64,000 bases of DNA from Alphaproteobacteria bacterium. GTDB taxonomy: Bacteria > Pseudomonadota > Alphaproteobacteria > JACAEB01. The DNA is taken from contig JACAEB010000217.1 of the NCBI GenBank assembly GCA_013389075.1, forward strand, positions 1,981 to 65,980, in the 5' to 3' direction. A model generated the notes under the pieces. That model did no database searches and was not told the origin of the DNA. It saw only the letters and a program-made list of their open reading frames with translations. Position numbers and translations under genes: made by a program. Below are positions 18,326 to 28,888 of the stretch, in pieces (position 1 is the stretch's first letter; each line of letters begins with the position of its first letter).

Positions 18326-20689
18326 ATGGCAGGCAGCACCGACGATCCGCTGACGATCTATCGGGCGAAGCGCGACTTCGCGCGGACCCCGGAGCCCTCG
18401 GGCAGTGGCGAGAAGCGCCGCGGCGGGCCGCCGGTGTTCGTGGTTCAGGAGCACCGTGCGCGGCGGCTCCACTACGATCTGCGCCTCGAACTCGACGGCG
18501 TCCTCAAGAGCTGGGCGGTGACGCGCGCGCCCGATCTTCCGCCTGCGGGCAAGCGCCTCGCCATCCGGACGGAGGATCACCCGCTCTCCTATGCCCGCTT
18601 CGAGGGAGAGATACCGGAAGGCTATGGCGCGGGAGAGGTACGCATCTGGGATCACGGCACCTGGACGCCGACATCGGATGCGGCGAAGGGGCTGTCCGAC
18701 GGTCATCTCGGGTTCCGGCTCGATGGCCAGCGACTGACCGGCCGCTTCGCGCTCGTCCGTATCGAGACGGACAAGCGCGGCAAGGAGAGCTGGCTCCTCG
18801 TCCGCCCGCGAAAGGACACGAACAGGGCCGCCGGCCCGCCCGCCTTCGTCCCCCCGCAGCTCGCGAGCCTTGCGGAAACTCCGCCCGAAGGGGCGGACTG
18901 GGTTCACGAGATCAAGTTCGACGGCTACCGCATCCAGGCGCAGCTTGGCGGCGAGGCGCCGCGTCTCTTCACGCGAAGCGGCAGGGACTGGACGGATCGC
19001 TATCCCTCGATCGTGAACGCGCTCGCGGAGGTGCGGGCCGAGAGTGCCCTGATCGACGGCGAGCTCGTAGCGCTCGACCCGGGCGGCCAGACCCGGTTCG
19101 ACTATCTTCAGTCACAGGACGATGCAGCCGAGCTCGTCTATTACGCCTTCGACCTCCTCTTCCTCGACGGCGAGGATCTGCGCACGCGCAGCCTGCGGGA
19201 CCGCAAGGCCGCGCTCCTGCGGATCCTGCCCCGAAATGCACGGCGCCTGCGCCTGAGCGAGGATCATGCCGGCCCGGGGGGCGCCGTTCTGGCGGCCGCC
19301 TGCCGGATGGGCCTTGAGGGCATCGTCTCCAAGCGGGCGAGCGCCCCCTATCGCTCCGGGCGCGGAGAGGACTGGCGGAAATCGAAATGCGTCGGCCGGG
19401 ACGAGTTCGTGATCGTGGGCTACCGGCGCTCGACGGTTCCGGGCAAGGCCTTCGCCTCCCTCCTCCTCGCCGCGCGGAAGGGAGGCGCGCTCGCCTATTG
19501 CGGGCGAGTGGGGACGGGCTTCGACGAGCGGGAGGCGGAGCGGCTGGCAGAACGCATGGCGCGGCTGGTGCGGACCCAGCCCGCCCTCCCCGTCCCCGCC
19601 GACGCGCGCCGCGAGGCGGTGTGGCTGTCCCCTCGCCTCGTGGCGGAGATCGGGTACACGGAGTATACGGCCGACGGGCGTCTGCGCCATCCGCGCTTTC
19701 TCGGCCTGCGCGAGGACAAGCCTGCCGAGGAGGTCGACATGCCACCTGCCCGCCCCGGCTTGCCCGAAGGTCCGTCCGCTCCCGGAGCGCAGACGGTCGC
19801 CGGCGTCCGGCCCACCCATCCGGACCGGCTCCTCTATCCGGGCCAGGGCCTGACGAAACGTCAGCTTGCCGAGTACTATCTCGCTCGCGCGGACGACATC
19901 CTGCCCCATCTCGCCGGCCGCCCCCTCAGCCTCGTGCGCTGTCCGCGCGGGGAAGGCGAACCCTGCTTCTTCCAGAAACATCACACGGCCTCGACACCGG
20001 ACTCCCTCGACAGCCTCGCCATCACCGAAGGGTCGGGGACAAAGGCCAGCTATCTCGTCATCCGCACGCTCGAGGGTCTCGTGGCGACGGCGCAGATGGG
20101 CGCGCTCGAGCTGCATGTCTGGGGTGCGCGCCGCGACCGGATCGAAGCGCCCGAACGGATCGTCTTCGATCTCGATCCGGCCCCTGACCTTCCGTTCACC
20201 GAGGTGAAGTTCGCGGCCGTCGAGCTGCGGGCCGTTCTGGAGACGCTGGACCTCGTCTCGTTTCCGCTCCTGACCGGCGGCAAGGGCATCCATGTCGTGG
20301 TGCCGATCGCCCGACGCTCGGGCTGGCCGGAGGTGAAGGCGTTCGCGCGCGGCCTCGCCCGGCGTCTTGCCGCCGTGGCCCCCGAACGCTATCTCGCGAC
20401 GGCCTCCAAGGCCGAGCGCGCCGGGCGGATCTTCATCGACTGGATGCGCAACGAAAGGGGCGCCACCGCCATCTGCCCGTTCTCGCCCCGCGCCCGCCCC
20501 GGGGCGCCGGTCGCGACGCCGGTATCGTGGTCCGAGCTGCCGGAGCTCGACAGCGCCTCGGCCTTCACGATCCTCACCCTGCGCCAGCGGCTCTCCCGCC
20601 TTCGCCGCGATCCGTGGGCGGATTATTTTTCGACCCGGCAGTACCTGACCACATCGCGTATCGCCGCCGTCACGAAGGCCCGGCCATGA
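18326..20689 (+). CDS. ligD: ATP-dependent DNA ligase LigD, multidomain (phosphoesterase - ligase - polymerase/primase)
   Basis: N-terminal PE domain (VFVVQEHRARRLHYDLRLE), ligase KxDG motif (EIKFDGYR) and C-terminal Prim-Pol domain. Starts 5 nt after ku. Confidence 0.9.
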   Translation: MAGSTDDPLTIYRAKRDFARTPEPSGSGEKRRGGPPVFVVQEHRARRLHYDLRLELDGVLKSWAVTRAPDLPPAGKRLAIRTEDHPLSYARFEGEIPEGYGAGEVRIWDHGTWTPTSDAAKGLSDGHLGFRLDGQRLTGRFALVRIETDKRGKESWLLVRPRKDTNRAAGPPAFVPPQLASLAETPPEGADWVHEIKFDGYRIQAQLGGEAPRLFTRSGRDWTDRYPSIVNALAEVRAESALIDGELVALDPGGQTRFDYLQSQDDAAELVYYAFDLLFLDGEDLRTRSLRDRKAALLRILPRNARRLRLSEDHAGPGGAVLAAACRMGLEGIVSKRASAPYRSGRGEDWRKSKCVGRDEFVIVGYRRSTVPGKAFASLLLAARKGGALAYCGRVGTGFDEREAERLAERMARLVRTQPALPVPADARREAVWLSPRLVAEIGYTEYTADGRLRHPRFLGLREDKPAEEVDMPPARPGLPEGPSAPGAQTVAGVRPTHPDRLLYPGQGLTKRQLAEYYLARADDILPHLAGRPLSLVRCPRGEGEPCFFQKHHTASTPDSLDSLAITEGSGTKASYLVIRTLEGLVATAQMGALELHVWGARRDRIEAPERIVFDLDPAPDLPFTEVKFAAVELRAVLETLDLVSFPLLTGGKGIHVVVPIARRSGWPEVKAFARGLARRLAAVAPERYLATASKAERAGRIFIDWMRNERGATAICPFSPRARPGAPVATPVSWSELPELDSASAFTILTLRQRLSRLRRDPWADYFSTRQYLTTSRIAAVTKARP

Positions 20690-20769: not shown

Positions 20770-20928
20770 ATGGACATTCTCAGGATCATCGTCGCCATTC
20801 TGCTGCCGCCCCTCGGGGTCTTCCTCCAGGTTGGACTCGGCGCGCAATTCTGGCTGAATATCCTCCTCACCCTCCTGGGCTACATACCGGGGATCGTGCA
20901 TGCCATCTGGATCATCGCCCGCCGATGA
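20770..20928 (+). CDS. YqaE/Pmp3 family stress-induced membrane peptide (52 aa)
   Basis: MDILRIIVAILLPPLGVFLQVGLGAQFWLNILLTLLGYIPGIVHAIWII. RBS AAAGGAG. Confidence 0.8.
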   Translation: MDILRIIVAILLPPLGVFLQVGLGAQFWLNILLTLLGYIPGIVHAIWIIARR

Positions 20929-21277
20929 GGACGCGCTTCTGGCGGACGCGGAACGGCTTGCCGACTGGCTCGACCGGCGCTTCGTCCTTCCGGGAACGAG
21001 GATCCGCTTCGGCTTCGACTCGCTGCTTGGGCTGGTGCCCGGCATTGGCGACAGCCTGACCGCCGCGATCGGGGTCTATGTGATCGTGCGCGCGCACGAG
21101 GCGGGCGCGCCGCCGCTTCTTCTCCTGCGCATGGGCGGCAACCTGCTGCTCGACGCCCTCGTGGGATCGATCCCGCTCCTGGGCGATGCCTTCGACGTCG
21201 TCTTCAAGGCCAATGCGCGCAATGCCCGCCTCCTGCGGCGGCACGTGGAGCGCCGCCGCAGCCGCATGCCGTCCTGA
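20900..21277 (+). CDS. DUF4112 domain membrane protein
   Basis: …RIRFGFDSLLGLVPGIGDSLTAAIGVYVI… Start overlaps the Pmp3 gene by 29 nt, so the start is uncertain. Confidence 0.55.
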   Translation: MPSGSSPADEDALLADAERLADWLDRRFVLPGTRIRFGFDSLLGLVPGIGDSLTAAIGVYVIVRAHEAGAPPLLLLRMGGNLLLDALVGSIPLLGDAFDVVFKANARNARLLRRHVERRRSRMPS

Positions 21278-21284
21278 TCTCGCC

Positions 21285-21983
21285 TCAACCGCCCATGTCG
21301 ATGACGACGATTTCGGAGGGCGTTAGAGCAAGGATGTCGAGCGAGCCTTCATCCGTAAGCCCCGCCCCATCGCCGGCCTCGAGGCGCGCCCCGCCCAGCT
21401 CCACCGATCCGCCGGCGACCTGCACCCAGACGCGCCGTCCGGCGTGAACCGGCAGGCTGGCACGCTCACCGGGCGCCAGAACGCCCGCGAGAAAATCCGC
21501 ATCCTGATGAAGCGGGATCGTGCCGTCGCGTCCCTCGCCCGAGGCGAGCAGCCGCAATCGCCCCGCCCGCTCGGCCAGCGGCACATGGATCTGCCCATAC
21601 CGCGGCGCATGGCCCGCGCGGTCCGGAAGGATCCAGATCTGGAGGAAGTGGACGGGTTCCGCCGCCGACCCGTTGAACTCGGAATGCACGATGCCGGTCC
21701 CCGCGCTCATGTGCTGGATGTCGCCGGGGCGGATGATCGAGCCGTTGCCGAGCGAGTCCCGGTGAGCGAGCGCGCCCGACAGGACGATCGTCACGATCTC
21801 CATGTCGCGGTGCCCGTGCGCCGCGAACCCCGCCCCGCCGCGCACATGGTCCTCGTTCAGCACGCGCAAGGGGCCGAAGCCCATATGGTCCGGATCGAAA
21901 TAGTCGCCGAAGGAAAAGCTGTGGTGCGAGTCGAGCCAATCGAGACGGGTGCGGCCGCGCGCGGCCGATGGGCGGATCATCAT
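21285..21983 (-). CDS. Pirin family protein (cupin)
   Basis: Conserved pirin N-domain HxH…E…H metal motif (HGHRDMEIVTIVLSG…HSE). Confidence 0.85.
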   Translation of the reverse strand: MMIRPSAARGRTRLDWLDSHHSFSFGDYFDPDHMGFGPLRVLNEDHVRGGAGFAAHGHRDMEIVTIVLSGALAHRDSLGNGSIIRPGDIQHMSAGTGIVHSEFNGSAAEPVHFLQIWILPDRAGHAPRYGQIHVPLAERAGRLRLLASGEGRDGTIPLHQDADFLAGVLAPGERASLPVHAGRRVWVQVAGGSVELGGARLEAGDGAGLTDEGSLDILALTPSEIVVIDMGG

Positions 21984-22083
21984 GACACTCTCCCTCGCCC
22001 GCCGATGTCGTCCGGGCGGACTGGAGATATGGCGTCATTCGCCCGGGAGAAAAGGAGGGGGCGGACCGCCGGCCCGTGCGGCG

Positions 22084-22407
22084 TCAGAGAGCTTCCCGGG
22101 CGGCCGGACAATACAGCTCGTAGAGGAGACGGACCACCGCCTCCGCCTCCGGGCTCGCCAGCCGGTAATGGATGACCTGTCCCGCACGCCGTGACGCCAC
22201 GAGCCCCTCGCGCCTGAGGAGCCCGAGCTGCTGCGACATCGCCGCCTGGCGCATGCCGAGGCGCTTGGCGAGCGCGCCGACGCTGAGTTCGCCCTCGGCC
22301 AGATGACACAGGATCCTGAGCCGTCCCGGATGGGACAGGCTCGCCATCAGGGCGACGGCACGCTCGGACGCCGCTTCCATCACCGACATGTCCATCTCAA
22401 TATTCAT
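22084..22407 (-). CDS. ArsR-family 2-Cys persulfide-sensing repressor (BigR/SqrR type)
   Basis: wHTH (LRILCHLAEGELSVGALAKRLGMRQAAMSQQL) with Cys in ILCHL and LYCPA, matching the BigR/SqrR Cys pair. Divergent from the blh operon. Start codon chosen at the predicted TSS (leaderless), so uncertain by a few codons. Confidence 0.7.
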   Translation of the reverse strand: MNIEMDMSVMEAASERAVALMASLSHPGRLRILCHLAEGELSVGALAKRLGMRQAAMSQQLGLLRREGLVASRRAGQVIHYRLASPEAEAVVRLLYELYCPAAREAL

Positions 22408-22414
22408 GCTTGCG

Positions 22415-22443
22415 CATATACGAATGTTTGCATATATTGTCAA
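22415..22443 (-). promoter_or_regulatory. Near-consensus sigma70 promoter TTGACA-N17-TATATG for the ArsR/BigR gene; overlapping imperfect inverted/direct repeats form the likely operator
   Basis: Minus-strand TTGACAATATATGCAAACATTCGTATATG. AT-rich island in a 70% GC genome. ATG 22407 lies ~7 nt after the -10, which predicts a leaderless mRNA. Confidence 0.55.
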
Positions 22444-22489
22444 CTGGCGGGAGCGGTCTGCCGCTCCCATCCCGTTCAAGGAGGCCGGC

Positions 22490-23353
22490 ATGAAGCCCGA
22501 GGTCACATCCTTCTTCGACGAGGCGACCTACACGATCACCCATGTGGTCGCCGATCCGAAGACACGGCGGGCGGCCATCATCGATCCGGTGCTCGACTAC
22601 GACCCGAAGTCGGGCCGGACCGCCACCCGCTCGGCGGACCGCGTCATCGCCCATGTCCGAGAGGCCGGTCTGACCATCGACTGGATCCTCGAAACCCATG
22701 CGCATGCAGATCATCTGAGCGCCGGTCCCTATCTAAAATCGGCACTGGGCGGAAAGACGGGCATCGGCGCGCACATCACCGATGTTCAGGAGGTGTTCGG
22801 CACGCTGTTCAACGCGGAGCCCGACTTTGCCCGCGACGGCTCCCAGTTCGACCAGCTGTTCGAGGACGGCGCACGCTTTGCGATCGGCGGTCTCGAGGCG
22901 CGCGTGATGCACACGCCCGGCCACACCCCGGCCTGCGTCACCTATGTCGTCGGCGACGCGGCCTTCGTGGGCGACACGCTCTTCATGCCCGACTATGGCA
23001 CGGCCCGCTGCGACTTTCCGCGCGGCGATGCCGCGACACTGTACCGGTCGATCCGCAGGATCTTCTCCCTCCCGGACGAGACGCGCCTCTTCCTCTGTCA
23101 CGACTACAAGGCCCCCGGGCGCGACAGCTATGTGTGGGAGACCACGGTCGGCGCGGAAAAGGCCGGCAACGTGCATGTGCATGAGGGGGTCAGCGAGGCC
23201 GAGTTCGTCGCCATGCGGACGGCCCGCGACCGCACGCTGGGAATGCCGGTTCTGCTTCTTCCCGCGGTGCAGGTGAACATGCGGGCGGGTGCCTTTCCTC
23301 CGCCCGAGGACAATGGGATCCGCTATCTGAAGATTCCGCTCGACGCCGTTTGA
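22490..23353 (+). CDS. blh: MBL-fold hydrolase Blh (persulfide dioxygenase / ETHE1-like)
   Basis: HxHxDH motif (ETHAHADHLSAG) plus downstream His/Asp ligands. RBS AAGGAGG. Genomic context is BigR-regulated. Confidence 0.8.
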   Translation: MKPEVTSFFDEATYTITHVVADPKTRRAAIIDPVLDYDPKSGRTATRSADRVIAHVREAGLTIDWILETHAHADHLSAGPYLKSALGGKTGIGAHITDVQEVFGTLFNAEPDFARDGSQFDQLFEDGARFAIGGLEARVMHTPGHTPACVTYVVGDAAFVGDTLFMPDYGTARCDFPRGDAATLYRSIRRIFSLPDETRLFLCHDYKAPGRDSYVWETTVGAEKAGNVHVHEGVSEAEFVAMRTARDRTLGMPVLLLPAVQVNMRAGAFPPPEDNGIRYLKIPLDAV

Positions 23354-23363
23354 GGATACGCAC

Positions 23364-23789
23364 ATGGAGAGCTTCGATCCTGTTACCGCCCTTGCAGGGG
23401 GCGCGCTGATCGGTCTTGCGGCCACGCTGCTGATGGCCGGGCTCGGCCGCATCGCCGGCGCGAGCGGCATCTTGATGGGTGTGCTCGCCCCGCCCGGCGG
23501 CGAGGCTCCCTGGCGGCTCGAATTCGTCGCGGGGCTCGTCGCCGCGCCCTTCCTCATGGCCCTGATGACCGGCGGTCTGCCCGAGATCCATGTGGAGGCC
23601 GGACTTCCCGCCCTGGCTGCCGCTGGTCTACTCGTCGGCATCGGAACCCAGATCGGGAGCGGCTGCACGAGCGGGCACGGTGTCTGCGGTCTTGCGCGCC
23701 TGTCGCCCCGCTCGCTGGTCGCGACGCCGGTCTTCATGGCCAGTTGCGCCCTGACCGTCTATGTCACGCGCCATCTGTTGGGAGGCTGA
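23364..23789 (+). CDS. YeeE/YedE family (DUF395) sulfur-compound transporter half
   Basis: 141 aa, 4 TM, conserved GSGCTSGHG motif. Confidence 0.75.
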   Translation: MESFDPVTALAGGALIGLAATLLMAGLGRIAGASGILMGVLAPPGGEAPWRLEFVAGLVAAPFLMALMTGGLPEIHVEAGLPALAAAGLLVGIGTQIGSGCTSGHGVCGLARLSPRSLVATPVFMASCALTVYVTRHLLGG

Positions 23790-23792
23790 TCA

Positions 23793-24269
23793 ATGCGCTC
23801 GCCCGCCTTCATCCGCGCCTGGTCGTTCGGCACCGGTCTTCTGTTCGGGCTCGGGCTCGTCCTCTCCGAGATGATCGACCCCGCCCGCGTGCTCGGCTTC
23901 TTCGACGTGGCCGGCACGTGGGACCCGACGCTCGGCTTCGTCATGGCCGGCGCGCTCGCCGTCACGGTGCCGGGCTATCGGCTCGTCCTGGCCCGCAAGG
24001 GGCCCCTCCTCGACACGCGCTTTCATCTGCCCACGCGCCACGATATCGACGCCCGCCTCGTCGGAGGCGCCGTTCTTTTCGGCATCGGCTGGGGCCTTGC
24101 GGGCTATTGCCCTGCGCCTGCCATGGCCTCTCTGGGCCTCGGCTCCGTGAAGGCGGCGGTCTTCCTCGCCTGCATGATCGTTGGTATGCTGATCTATCGG
24201 GCCTGGCTTTCTCCGGCGGCCCGGCAAAGGGGTCCTGCGTCCGGCGCTGCCGGGGGAGCGGCTTCGTGA
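23793..24269 (+). CDS. YeeE/YedE-family second half (DUF6691-like)
   Basis: 158 aa membrane protein with GYCPAPA motif, paired with the upstream half. Confidence 0.7.
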   Translation: MRSPAFIRAWSFGTGLLFGLGLVLSEMIDPARVLGFFDVAGTWDPTLGFVMAGALAVTVPGYRLVLARKGPLLDTRFHLPTRHDIDARLVGGAVLFGIGWGLAGYCPAPAMASLGLGSVKAAVFLACMIVGMLIYRAWLSPAARQRGPASGAAGGAAS

Positions 24270-26029
24270 GAGGCGAGCGCCTCCTCCCCGCGCTCGCCTG
24301 GCTGCGAGGCTATGGCCGTGAGGAGGCCCTCTCCGACACCATCGCCGCATCCATCGTGACGGTGATGCTGATCCCGCAGAGCCTTGCCTATGCCATGCTG
24401 GCGGGACTTCCGCCCGAGGTGGGCCTTTATGCCTCCATCGCGCCGCTGATCGCCTATGCCGCCTTCGGGTCGAGCCGCACGCTATCGGTCGGTCCCGTGG
24501 CGGTGATCTCGCTGATGACGGCCACGGCGACGGCAGAGGCGAGCGCGCGCACGGGGGCCGACCCGGTCGGCGTCGCCCTGGCGCTCGCCTTCCTGTCGGG
24601 GCTGTTTCTCGTCGGCATGGGGCTCCTGCGGCTCGGCTTTCTCGCCAATCTCCTCAGTCACCCGGTGATCTCGGGTTTCATCACCGCCTCGGCGATCCTC
24701 ATCACCGTGAGCCAGCTTCCCGCGCTGCTGGGACTGTCCGTATCCGGACACGGATTCCCCGAGCTCGTCGTCGCGATATCCGCTTCGCTGCCGGCCCTGC
24801 ACCTGCAAACACTCGCTCTGGGCCTCGCCGCCCTGGTGCTGCTCCTCCTCGCGCGGCAATATCTGCGCGGCACGCTCCGCCGTCTGAGGCTTTCCGCCAC
24901 CCTCGCCGATGGCCTTGCCCGGGCTGCGCCCATGGCGGTCGTGATCCTGTCCATTCTCGCCGTGCAGGGGCTCGACCTCGAGGCTGCGGGCGTGCGCACG
25001 GTCGGCACCATTCCGCCGGGCCTGCCCCCGCTCACACTCACCCTGCCCTCGTCCGCGCTTCTGCTCGAGCTCCTGCCGGCGGCCGTGCTCATCAGCGTGG
25101 TCGGTTTCGTGGAATCGGTCTCCGTCGCCCAGACGCTGGCGGCGCGTCAGCGTCAGCGGATCGATCCGAACCAGGAGCTTGTGGGCCTGGGCGCCGCCAA
25201 TCTCGCGGCCTCCGCCACGGGCGGCTTTCCGGTGACGGGCGGATTTGCCCGGTCGGTCGTCAATTTCGACGCCGGGGCCCGAACGCCCATGGCGGGCGTC
25301 CTCACGGCCCTCGGCATCGCCCTGACCGCGCTCGTGCTGACGCCGCTCTTCGCGGCGCTGCCGCGCGCGACCCTCGCCGCGACGATCATCGTCGCCGTGC
25401 TTTCTCTCGTCGACATCGGGGCGATCCGGCGCGCCTTCGCCTATTCACGGGTCGACTTCGCGGCCCAGGCCGGCACCATTGCCGTGACGCTCGCGGCAGG
25501 CGTCGAGCCCGGCATCCTCGCCGGCATCGTCCTGTCGCTGCTCCTGCACATCTGGCGGACCAGCCGACCCCATTATGCCATCGTGGGACAGGTTCCGGGG
25601 ACGGAGCATTTCCGCAACGTGCTGCGCCACGCGGTTCTGACGAGCCCGCACGTGCTCTCGATCCGGATCGACGAAAGCCTCTATTTCGCCAACGCCCGCT
25701 TCCTCGAGGATCTCATCGGAAGGCTCGTGGCCGAGCGCCCGCAGCTGCGCCACGTCGTCCTCATGTGCTCCGCCGTCAACCTCATCGACGCGAGCGCTCT
25801 CGAGAGCCTTGAGGCGATCAACGAACGCCTGCACTCGGCGGGCATCGATCTTCATCTGTCGGAGGTGAAGGGACCGGTCATGGACCGTCTCCGCCGGACG
25901 GATTTCCCCGGCCGCCTGACCGGCCGGGTGTTCCTGTCGCAATATGACGCGGTCCGCGCGCTCGATCCGGCGAGCCTCGGTCCCGCGCGGCCCGAAGGGG
26001 TCCGCGAGGGCGCGCCTCAGAGCGGATAG
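24266..26029 (+). CDS. SulP family anion permease with C-terminal STAS domain
   Basis: GTG start overlapping the upstream stop (GTGA). Sulfate-transporter N-terminus LRGYGREEALSD…PQSLAYAMLAGLPP. C-terminal STAS domain. Confidence 0.85.
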   Translation: MRGERLLPALAWLRGYGREEALSDTIAASIVTVMLIPQSLAYAMLAGLPPEVGLYASIAPLIAYAAFGSSRTLSVGPVAVISLMTATATAEASARTGADPVGVALALAFLSGLFLVGMGLLRLGFLANLLSHPVISGFITASAILITVSQLPALLGLSVSGHGFPELVVAISASLPALHLQTLALGLAALVLLLLARQYLRGTLRRLRLSATLADGLARAAPMAVVILSILAVQGLDLEAAGVRTVGTIPPGLPPLTLTLPSSALLLELLPAAVLISVVGFVESVSVAQTLAARQRQRIDPNQELVGLGAANLAASATGGFPVTGGFARSVVNFDAGARTPMAGVLTALGIALTALVLTPLFAALPRATLAATIIVAVLSLVDIGAIRRAFAYSRVDFAAQAGTIAVTLAAGVEPGILAGIVLSLLLHIWRTSRPHYAIVGQVPGTEHFRNVLRHAVLTSPHVLSIRIDESLYFANARFLEDLIGRLVAERPQLRHVVLMCSAVNLIDASALESLEAINERLHSAGIDLHLSEVKGPVMDRLRRTDFPGRLTGRVFLSQYDAVRALDPASLGPARPEGVREGAPQSG

Positions 26030-26283
26030 TCGCGCGCGGGGTCGATGCCGCAGCCTTCGAGGAACTTGCGGAACTGGATGACCTCTTCCTTGGGCAGGCT
26101 GTGATGCCCGTGGGCGAAGCTGGCGCTGTGGCCTTTCAGCCTGGCGTGGAGGCGCCCCGAATGGGCGTGGTCGAGCTCGGCACCGAGTTCGCGCAGCACG
26201 CTTTCGACGTCCTTCATCGCGATGTTGGCGCTGATCGGATGCGCGAAGAGGGCGTGAAGGATCTTGCGGTGATGATGGTTCAT
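26017..26283 (-). CDS. Hypothetical small protein, possibly HicA-like (88 aa)
   Basis: MNHHHRKILHALFAHP…KDVESVLRELGAEL…GSH-rich segment is loosely reminiscent of HicA toxins. No partner gene. Confidence 0.35.
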   Translation of the reverse strand: MNHHHRKILHALFAHPISANIAMKDVESVLRELGAELDHAHSGRLHARLKGHSASFAHGHHSLPKEEVIQFRKFLEGCGIDPARDYPL

Positions 26284-26363
26284 GGCGGCCTCGCTGTTGC
26301 TTGCCCTGAGCATTCGACGGCGGCGGGGCCGGACTTGCAACGGGCAATCTGCCGCATTGGGGC

Positions 26364-27461
26364 TCAGCGCCGCTCGAGGGCCTCGGCGAGGGCGGAAAGG
26401 TCGAGCGTCCATGTGAGGTCCGAGGGGCCCCGCCAGGCGTCGAGCCCGCCCCCGGAGATGACGAGCGTGTCGCCCACCACACCCGCGCCGGTCGCGTAGA
26501 GTTCGCGCGGCAGCGTCTGCAGCTCGCGCCAGGTCCCGTCGGCGATCCTGTAGCTGAGGAAGACGTCGAGGCCCCGGTCGTCGAGGCCCGCGACCTCCTC
26601 CCAGATCTCGACGAACAGTCCGGGCTCGTTGTTCCGGCCGCCAAGCGTCCAGATGCGGCCCCCATAGGCGAAGGTCGACCCTTCCATGTGGGAGCGGGGA
26701 GCCGGCAGGCGAGGGATCTCCTCCCAGCTGTCCGACTGCGGATCGTATCGATGGGCGAGATCGAGGTCGTCGCGATTGAGCGTCACACCGTCGAGCCCGT
26801 CATGATGATGGATGCCCCCGAGCACATAGATCTTTCCGTTGGCGACGGCGGCGGCGAAATGGGCGCGTGGCTCGGGCATCGGCGCGGCGGGAACCCAGGC
26901 CGCCGGAGCGCGCGGATCGAGCGTCCAGTGCTCCGGGTACGACACATGGCGTTCGAGCCCGGCCCCGCCGAAGAAATGCAGCCGGCCGTTCACGTGGACG
27001 AGGGCGCCGGAGGCCCGCGGCGCGGGAAGCGGGACCTGCTCCTCCCAGCGCTCGGTCACGGTATCGTAGCGGAAGACGGCATCGGTGGCCGTGCCCGGAT
27101 GGCTGCCCCGGAAGCCCCCGGCGATCCAGATATAGCGGTCCTCGACCACGGCCGGCATCACGTGATTGGTCCCCACCGGCATGTCCGGGTGGGTCCGCCA
27201 TTCGTCCGCCTTCGGGTCGTAGGAATAGATCTCGAGGGTTTCCCGCAGGCGCGGGTCGGCAAAGCCGCCGAGGAAGTAGATCCGCTCCCCCACCACGGCC
27301 GGCGCGCTGGCAATGCGGGCCATGGGCTGCGGCGCGGCCGGGACGAAGGCGGTCTCGGGCGGGGCCTCGCCACAGGCGGCGAGCAGAAGCGCAAGCCCGG
27401 CCGCCGCCCACAGATTCGCAGGGCGCCGCGACGCGCCCGCTCCCCCCGCCCCTGATCTCAT
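26364..27461 (-). CDS. Kelch-repeat beta-propeller lipoprotein (galactose-oxidase/NanM-like fold)
   Basis: Lipobox LLLAAC. Multiple Kelch repeats (IYFLGGF…, IWIAGGF…, LHFFGGA…, IYVLGGI…, IWTLGGR…). Start overlaps the GT4 stop (ATGA). Confidence 0.75.
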   Translation of the reverse strand: MRSGAGGAGASRRPANLWAAAGLALLLAACGEAPPETAFVPAAPQPMARIASAPAVVGERIYFLGGFADPRLRETLEIYSYDPKADEWRTHPDMPVGTNHVMPAVVEDRYIWIAGGFRGSHPGTATDAVFRYDTVTERWEEQVPLPAPRASGALVHVNGRLHFFGGAGLERHVSYPEHWTLDPRAPAAWVPAAPMPEPRAHFAAAVANGKIYVLGGIHHHDGLDGVTLNRDDLDLAHRYDPQSDSWEEIPRLPAPRSHMEGSTFAYGGRIWTLGGRNNEPGLFVEIWEEVAGLDDRGLDVFLSYRIADGTWRELQTLPRELYATGAGVVGDTLVISGGGLDAWRGPSDLTWTLDLSALAEALERR

Positions 27462-28660: not shown

Positions 28661-28865
28661 GGCGCCTTCCCTTGCCGGCTCGGCCAGGAGGCCGACCGTC
28701 CCAACCATTGGACCTTGCTGTAGTCTTGCTGACGATTCTCTTCCGAACATGGTGGCTTACACTCGTTCGGTCCATGCCGACCCGGATGGATCGACGCGGC
28801 CCCATTCGCATTCCGGATACGCGCCTTCTGCTTTGCACATTTTCCCACATCAAAGAGTTAAGGCA

Positions 28866-28888
28866 CTGCAAATGAAAATCGATTGCAG
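28866..28888. promoter_or_regulatory. Palindrome CTGCAAAT-N8-ATTGCAG in the AT-rich 349-bp intergenic region between the GT4/Kelch operon and purD
   Basis: Inverted repeat in a divergent promoter region; candidate regulator binding site. Confidence 0.3.

Follow-up and report, generated by a model that had tools for sequence, protein, structure and literature searches.

A 64,000-nt stretch of an uncultured Alphaproteobacteria bacterium (contig JACAEB010000217.1 of the metagenome-assembled genome (MAG) GCA_013389075.1; hereafter the window) carries a locus of five genes, at 22084..26029, that probably constitutes a regulon of the SqrR/BigR kind responsive to reactive sulfur species (persulfide/polysulfide). 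In this locus the gene of an ArsR-family regulator (arsR) is divergent from the genes of a persulfide dioxygenase (PDO2, named blh in an earlier note on this DNA, hereafter the original prediction), two YeeE/YedE halves and a SulP permease with a STAS domain. Homology and gene neighbourhood both speak strongly for reading these genes as a sulfur-oxidation and transport operon under a repressor that responds to reactive sulfur. All five genes are real, with every feature found no more than 1 nt from the coordinates originally given, and the five-gene content, promoter hexamers, GTGA overlap and AT-rich island described in the original prediction are all present in the sequence (Table 1). The locus adds a further case, taken from an uncultured alphaproteobacterium, to the well-studied sulfide/persulfide stress regulons, and leaves the understanding of them unchanged. 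It is an ordinary and widespread bacterial module, mildly unusual only in the probably leaderless mRNA of its repressor, and what it offers is a promoter/operator layout that is conserved and testable, with the predicted leaderless start codon of the repressor inside its own candidate operator.

A two-cysteine regulator of the SqrR/BigR/HlyU clade

The regulator, identical to a 107-aa protein in the NCBI annotation of an Alphaproteobacteria MAG, has the ArsR/SmtB winged helix-turn-helix fold, as indicated by Pfam HTH_5 (3e-11) and HTH_20 and by NCBIfam HTH_metalloreg (84.9 bits against a cutoff of 55). Among proteins of solved structure it is closest to Rhodobacter capsulatus SqrR (2.7e-23), Vibrio HlyU (5e-23) and Xylella BigR (1.4e-20). 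Only two cysteines are observed, C34 (ILCHL) and C100 (LYCPA), and in the alignment with 6o8l (E = 2.7e-23) both fall on the sensing cysteines of SqrR (MIMCYL and EQFCS). The Cys pair that defines the SqrR/BigR type is C41/C107 in SqrR and C42/C108 in BigR, and the alignment of C34/C100 with the SqrR cysteines agrees with the original prediction of such a pair. Metal ligand sets in the ArsR/SmtB family are a CxC motif in α3 and an Asp/His cluster in α5; a search for these ligands in the regulator found no second Cys in the α3 region (ILCHLAEGE) and no His after residue 80. In its two cysteines, its fold, the absence of these metal sites and its linkage to sulfur genes, which is also seen in the related loci L083, L085 and L086, the regulator resembles SqrR/BigR-type repressors. 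It would be expected to bind DNA and to take persulfide or polysulfide as its inducer.

The divergent dioxygenase and transporter genes

The first gene of the divergent operon starts at ATG 22490, behind AAGGAGG at 22478..22484. Its product has the metallo-beta-lactamase fold (Pfam Lactamase_B) and matches the Beta-lactamase domain protein 4ysk/4ysl, which we take to be the characterised persulfide dioxygenase of Pseudomonas putida, over residues 5-285 (E = 9.7e-126); the match with 9g8t is 6.7e-128. The original assignment of blh as a persulfide dioxygenase-type protein is thus upheld by the 4ysk/4ysl match. The protein spans only positions 141-422 of the 423 in the bifunctional Blh model NF040641 (407 bits, below the cutoff of 625), and by sequence the 'blh' of the window is the dioxygenase part only and lacks the sulfurtransferase domain (DUF442) that Xylella Blh has.

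The next two genes encode complementary halves of YeeE, both of which contain cysteine: the 141-aa protein matches positions 191-309 of PF04143, corresponding to the C-terminal half, and the 158-aa protein matches DUF6691 (5e-44) and positions 55-113 of PF04143, corresponding to the N-terminal half. The assignment rests on Pfam because a PDB sequence search with the two halves gave nothing meaningful. PmpA and PmpB have been described as just such C- and N-terminal YeeE halves (PMC11582611). In the YedE1E2 pair, both halves are required for the import of zero-valent sulfur, by which glutathione persulfide formation is promoted and oxidation by PDO2 is accelerated (PMC10812762), and full-length YeeE serves thiosulfate uptake for assimilation.

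The last gene begins with a GTG that overlaps the stop of the second YeeE half as GTGA. Its product shows PF00916 (4.7e-98) and the STAS domain PF01740 (6e-16) and reaches 425 bits with TIGR00815 (cutoff 380). The solved structures nearest to it are those of eukaryotic sulfate transporters, the best being AtSULTR4;1 (2.4e-88), and not DauA or BicA. SulP probably exports sulfite, thiosulfate or sulfate.

A promoter and operator-like layout conserved in eight loci

Between arsR and PDO2 lies an AT-rich island (22391..22446) with a GC content of 0.33 against 0.69 in the window; it holds the lowest-GC 48-mer of the 64 kb, and 0.01% of the 48-mers are as low. The second-lowest 48-mer (GC 0.35, about 28837..28884) is upstream of a 430-aa open reading frame (ORF) on the minus strand and is probably another promoter region.

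The arsR promoter in the island consists of TTGACA, a 17-nt spacer and TATATG, and only 7 nt (cgcaagc) separate the -10 hexamer from the ATG. Close relatives suitable for footprinting were not found, the next ArsR homologue being 57% identical and the best PDO2 76%. We therefore compared the window with seven other loci (L006, L027, L074, L082, L083, L085 and L086), whose regulators are 40-57% identical to that of the window, the distant loci being anchored on the ATG. A TAT(A/C)T(G/A) hexamer is present exactly 7 nt before the ATG in all eight loci, the window included; because the eight are homologous, what they have in common does not count as fully independent evidence. ATGAA is conserved, the encoded proteins begin with M-[N/K/Q]-[I/L/V], and a TTGAC(A/G)-like -35 is found 16-18 nt upstream of the -10 in 6-7 of the 8. 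Other subclades of the regulator family have ordinary leaders of 25-35 nt (Rubrivivax, Ferrovibrio, Maricaulis; L033, L061, L017, L021, L034), which suggests that the 7-nt layout is subclade-specific and not an artefact of the method. Because a 7-nt gap leaves no room for a ribosome-binding site, the arsR mRNA is most likely leaderless and would start at 22407, with codons 1-2 inside the candidate operator. The original prediction of a leaderless arsR gains comparative support from this conserved layout.

The operator itself is predicted from the symmetry of the same region. The island contains a direct repeat of GCATATA, two copies 16 nt apart, and an 18-nt imperfect palindrome at 22399..22428. 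When the eight loci are scored for complementarity, a dyad is found with its centre between -7 and -6 (60/96 complementary, background about 27), and a second dyad centre lies 4 nt upstream (57/96). The first corresponds to a candidate operator, O1, which takes in the arsR -10, the predicted transcription start site and the first two codons and shares positions with the putative blh -35; a second and overlapping operator-like site, O2, is in the opposite orientation. With a position weight matrix derived from the other seven loci, leaving the window out, O1 scores 38.1 bits and O2 scores 19.9 bits, the maximum among shuffled sequences is 17.2, and nothing comparable is found elsewhere in the 64 kb. 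The overlapping repeats of the island had been proposed as the likely operator, and the dyad kept in the seven other loci, together with the matrix score, argues for this proposal. It is also evident that the codons following the arsR ATG, AAT ATT, are non-preferred in a genome of 69% GC (ATC 54 versus ATT 5 in the five genes), as would be expected if the DNA itself were under constraint.

A putative blh promoter is back-to-back and interleaved with that of arsR, and similar hexamers occur in L006 and L027. One bound repressor could, by inference, shut both promoters. The stretch from the arsR -35 to the ribosome-binding site of blh also holds a perfect GC hairpin (22449..22468), probably in the 5' untranslated region of blh.

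Distribution of the arrangement in related species

A PDO2 scan with one genome per species gave more than 590 relatives, of which the best 80 (63-76% identical, from alpha-, beta- and gammaproteobacteria) were examined for neighbouring genes within 4.5 kb of PDO2. An ArsR regulator of the same type is present in 34 of these 80 loci, a split YeeE pair in 29 and a SulP homologue (about 50-65% identity) in 31, and all three occur together in 6. The regulator is divergently oriented in 14/80.

The gene order varies among these loci, where a minus sign marks the reverse strand. Neptunomonas (L046) shows ArsR(-) / PDO2, half, half; two Halomonadaceae (L060 and L072) show PDO2, SulP, half, half; Pseudomonas (L029) shows ArsR, half, half, PDO2, SulP; and two Rubrivivax loci (L033 and L061) show half(-), half(-), ArsR(-) / PDO2, SulP. 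In a metagenome locus (L083) the order is ArsR, half, half, PDO2, DUF442-FAD oxidoreductase, SulP, all in one direction. The exact gene order of the window is absent among the related loci examined, and each of its adjacencies recurs elsewhere. It may be added that the oxidoreductase of L083 (7125..8876), like that of L086 (5759..7525), is a fusion of 583-588 aa that joins DUF442 (BLH_phosphatase) to an SQR-like FAD-dependent oxidoreductase; it sits between PDO2 and SulP and has no homologue in the window.

The original prediction regarded the locus as a variant module for export and took the divergent regulator, the split YeeE/YedE and SulP as its distinctive features. None of these holds as distinctive. 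Split YeeE/YedE together with PDO2 under BigR/PigS has already been described (PMC7315123), SulP adjoins PDO2 in 31/80 species and is known from published pdo-sqrB-sulP clusters (PMC6548844), and divergent regulators are found in the 14 loci above. Because the arrangements recur among the 80 loci and in the literature, these features fall within the usual variation of a modular gene set that is already known. The notion of export fits SulP at most and fails for YedE1E2, since the published pair imports zero-valent sulfur (PMC10812762).

Proposed mechanism and comparison with known systems

The following model would account for the locus as a persulfide-responsive regulon. In its reduced form, the dimer of the ArsR-family regulator would sit on the AT-rich dyads (22402..22433) across the two interleaved promoters, where it would occlude the -10 and start site of its own gene together with the -35 and the spacer that belong to the divergent operon. 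With the build-up of sulfane sulfur, a di- to tetrasulfide bridge would form between Cys34 and Cys100, the repressor would be released from the DNA and both transcripts would be made. PmpA/PmpB (YedE1E2) would then bring in zero-valent (sulfane) sulfur and promote the formation of glutathione persulfide, PDO2 would oxidize persulfide to sulfite, part of which would react on to thiosulfate, and SulP-STAS would most likely remove the resulting sulfur oxyanion. The transport substrates and directions in this scheme are predicted ones.

The nearest described counterparts are in Acinetobacter baumannii, where BigR controls yeeE-yedE-pdo2 through C34/C100, and in the related Serratia system (PMC7315123). 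A. baumannii BigR and Serratia PigS-blhA-pmpABC have, like the window, a two-Cys ArsR repressor, a single-domain PDO2 and two half-size YeeE/YedE proteins; the numbering C34/C100 happens to be the same in A. baumannii BigR and the window regulator, and the operons of Serratia are divergent as they are here. Compared with both, the window adds SulP-STAS to the operon, in which pdo2 comes first and the two halves follow.

R. capsulatus SqrR is the closest solved structure, with both sensing Cys aligned and an operator that has ATTC and GAAT arms as in the window, although the SqrR arms are 8 nt apart and those of the window 16 nt. SqrR acts globally, on sqr and photosynthesis genes; in the window, by contrast, the local operon is apparently the sole target within the 64 kb. 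The bigR operon of Xylella and Agrobacterium shares with the window a two-Cys winged-helix repressor and, as predicted here, the oxidation of persulfide to sulfite and a transporter for the product; BigR there recognises the -10 region of its own operon (PMC5823870). Xylella Blh, however, is a DUF442-ETHE1 fusion while the window has the dioxygenase domain only, and the Xylella transporter is of the TauE type, whereas the operon in the window has SulP-STAS and no TauE-type exporter. The regulator gene of the bigR operon is also taken to lie within that operon, unlike the divergent arsR of the window.

YedE1E2 of Cupriavidus and Sinorhizobium is encoded, as in the window, by two adjacent genes of about 140 aa associated with pdo, each half having four predicted helices and a conserved cysteine (PMC10812762). 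In the pdo-sqrB-sulP clusters (PMC6548844) of Methylophaga thiooxydans, SulP, which is expressed during the oxidation of sulfur compounds, is likewise encoded beside a persulfide dioxygenase. Those clusters have methanethiol oxidase and SQR, and an ArsR regulator or YedE1E2 is not reported there.

Two further suggestions arise from these comparisons, and we put them forward together only tentatively, with some doubt that both will hold. One is that an SqrR/BigR-type subclade with the N-terminus M-[N/K/Q]-[I/L/V]-x-x-M has a leaderless mRNA whose transcription start, start codon and first two codons lie inside the 24-bp operator of the repressor itself, a layout kept across alpha- and other proteobacterial lineages with or without a divergent operon. 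The other is that SulP-STAS beside PDO2 could be the missing efflux partner for sulfite/thiosulfate where TauE is lacking. Our literature search found no bacterial SulP for which such an efflux role has been shown. The linkage of PDO2 and SulP in about 40% of the sampled related species points to sulfite or thiosulfate as a candidate physiological substrate of SulP in a large bacterial group.

Alternative interpretations

Several observations weigh against the interpretation above or parts of it. The matrix and dyad signals are partly due to promoter and start-codon conservation and not to operator function. The arms in the window (ATTC-N16-GAAT) differ from the published SqrR box (ATTC-N8-GAAT), so that more than one binding register is conceivable; ATTC-N8-GAAT as such is not in the window and is present, as read by eye, in L074. 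For SulP, a literature search found no homologue whose substrate or direction had been tested. The regulator scores 86.5 bits with the BigR equivalog NF040642, below its cutoff of 155, and for this reason it is, on sequence grounds, a member of the SqrR/BigR/HlyU clade but no strict BigR orthologue. A tblastn search of the window with the DUF442-SQR fusion and a YgaP-type rhodanese gave 0 matches, and no SQR, DUF442 or rhodanese is found in the 64 kb, which implies that the source of persulfide is encoded elsewhere or that the module acts mainly on imported sulfane sulfur. As for the arsR start, a generic promoter scan of 21900..26500 called no sigma-70 site, the -10 TATATG has no T at position 6, where one is nearly always present, and the family N-terminus M-x4-M aligns with Met5 of the window protein rather than with Met1. 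The scan passed over the arsR promoter because its rule needs that T, and the promoter was retained solely because of its conservation across species.

These last points belong to an alternative in which the general function is the same and the arsR mRNA is not leaderless, having either an upstream start or translation from Met5, Met7 or Met10 behind a leader of 12-27 nt. We consider it rather unlikely. In its favour, the M-x4-M of the family aligns with Met5..Met10, Met1 of HlyU is aligned to residue 5, and leaders of 25-35 nt are clear in other subclades. Against it stand the fixed distance of 7 nt from the -10 to the ATG in eight loci with ATGAA conserved, and the absence of any Shine-Dalgarno-like sequence before Met5, Met7 or Met10. 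Moreover, the M-x4-M proteins of L006 and L027 begin at the very ATG that follows the -10 by 7 nt.

It is improbable that the locus is instead an assimilation module, in which SulP would import sulfate/thiosulfate, sulfane sulfur would be a nutrient taken up by YedE1E2 and PDO2 would feed sulfite to assimilation. YedE1E2 is indeed an importer, the thiosulfate uptake by full-length YeeE does serve assimilation, SulP passes a curated 'sulfate permease' model and has sulfate transporters as its closest solved relatives, and the lack of SQR in the window is consistent with such a role. The control is, however, by a persulfide-type repressor and not by a CysB-type activator, homologous clusters contain genes characteristic of sulfide oxidation (SQR-like and rhodanese), and the A. 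baumannii and Xylella data link such operons to sulfide stress.

More improbable still is a generic thiol switch for peroxide, hypochlorite, electrophiles or metal, with the sulfur-gene linkage being secondary: HlyU and YgaV are almost as close among the solved relatives, the BigR cutoff is missed and the earliest account of BigR made it a disulfide redox switch, but the linkage of the regulator to PDO2, YedE1E2, rhodanese and SulP is consistent across many lineages, SqrR and A. baumannii BigR are persulfide-selective, and metal sensing is countered by the absence of any α3 Cys apart from Cys34 and of any His in the C-terminal helix.

Feature coordinates and neighbouring genes

Table 1. Genes and regulatory features of the sulfur locus, in window coordinates
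Feature	Coordinates	Strand	Remarks
ArsR/SmtB-family two-Cys regulator (arsR), SqrR/BigR/HlyU clade	22084..22407	-	107 aa
PDO2 ('blh' without DUF442 domain), single-domain type-II persulfide dioxygenase	22490..23353	+	287 aa
PmpA/YedE-type half transporter, C-terminal half of YeeE	23364..23789	+	141 aa; PF04143
PmpB/YedE-type half transporter, N-terminal half of YeeE	23793..24269	+	158 aa; DUF6691 and PF04143
SulP/SLC26 permease with C-terminal STAS	24266..26029	+	587 aa; GTG start
-35 of arsR promoter, TTGACA	22438..22443	-	Read from sequence
-10 of arsR promoter, TATATG	22415..22420	-	Read from sequence; N17 spacer
Predicted arsR transcription start, A of ATG	22407	-	Inferred from promoter geometry, conservation and no Shine-Dalgarno room
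Candidate operator O1, 24-bp imperfect dyad ATTCGTATATGC/GCAAGCATGAAT (minus-strand reading)	22402..22425		-18 to +6
Inner dyad halves of candidate operator, TATATGC/GCAAGCAT			
Operator-like site O2, overlapping O1 in opposite orientation	22410..22433	+	Matrix score 19.9 bits
Putative blh promoter, TTGCGC-N17-TATATT	22410..22438	+	Read from sequence; below scan threshold
Perfect 8-bp GC stem GGGAGCGG, 4-nt loop tctg, CCGCTCCC	22449..22468	+	RNA fold -24.5 kcal/mol, z = -2.0

Downstream of arsR by 100 nt and on the same strand is a pirin-family gene (PF02678, PF17954; 21285..21983, minus strand). No terminator was called in the gap between the two genes, where a weak hairpin followed by TTTT is seen at about 22046..22070. 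We rejected pirin as a member of the module, as it is a neighbour in 0/80 related loci. Further upstream in the window, a 787-aa ORF (18326..20689, plus strand) resembles a multidomain LigD-type DNA ligase, judging from its translation only, and after it come two small membrane proteins (about 20770..21277), the first of them Pmp3/YqaE-like. On the other side, a 131-aa ORF (26017..26412, minus strand) is convergent with SulP and shares 13 nt with the 3' end of that gene; neither Pfam nor NCBIfam gives a match for the ORF, and its true start is likely the internal MNHHHRKIL.

The longest mechanical ORFs of the locus overshoot the real starts, that of ArsR (22084..22506, minus strand) running through the promoter and that of SulP (23744..26029, plus strand) through the second YeeE half. 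Such over-long ORFs are typical of DNA with 69% GC and are a trap for automated start calling, and several homologues in the protein database (e.g., P0020 and P0040) carry the same spurious N-terminal extension.

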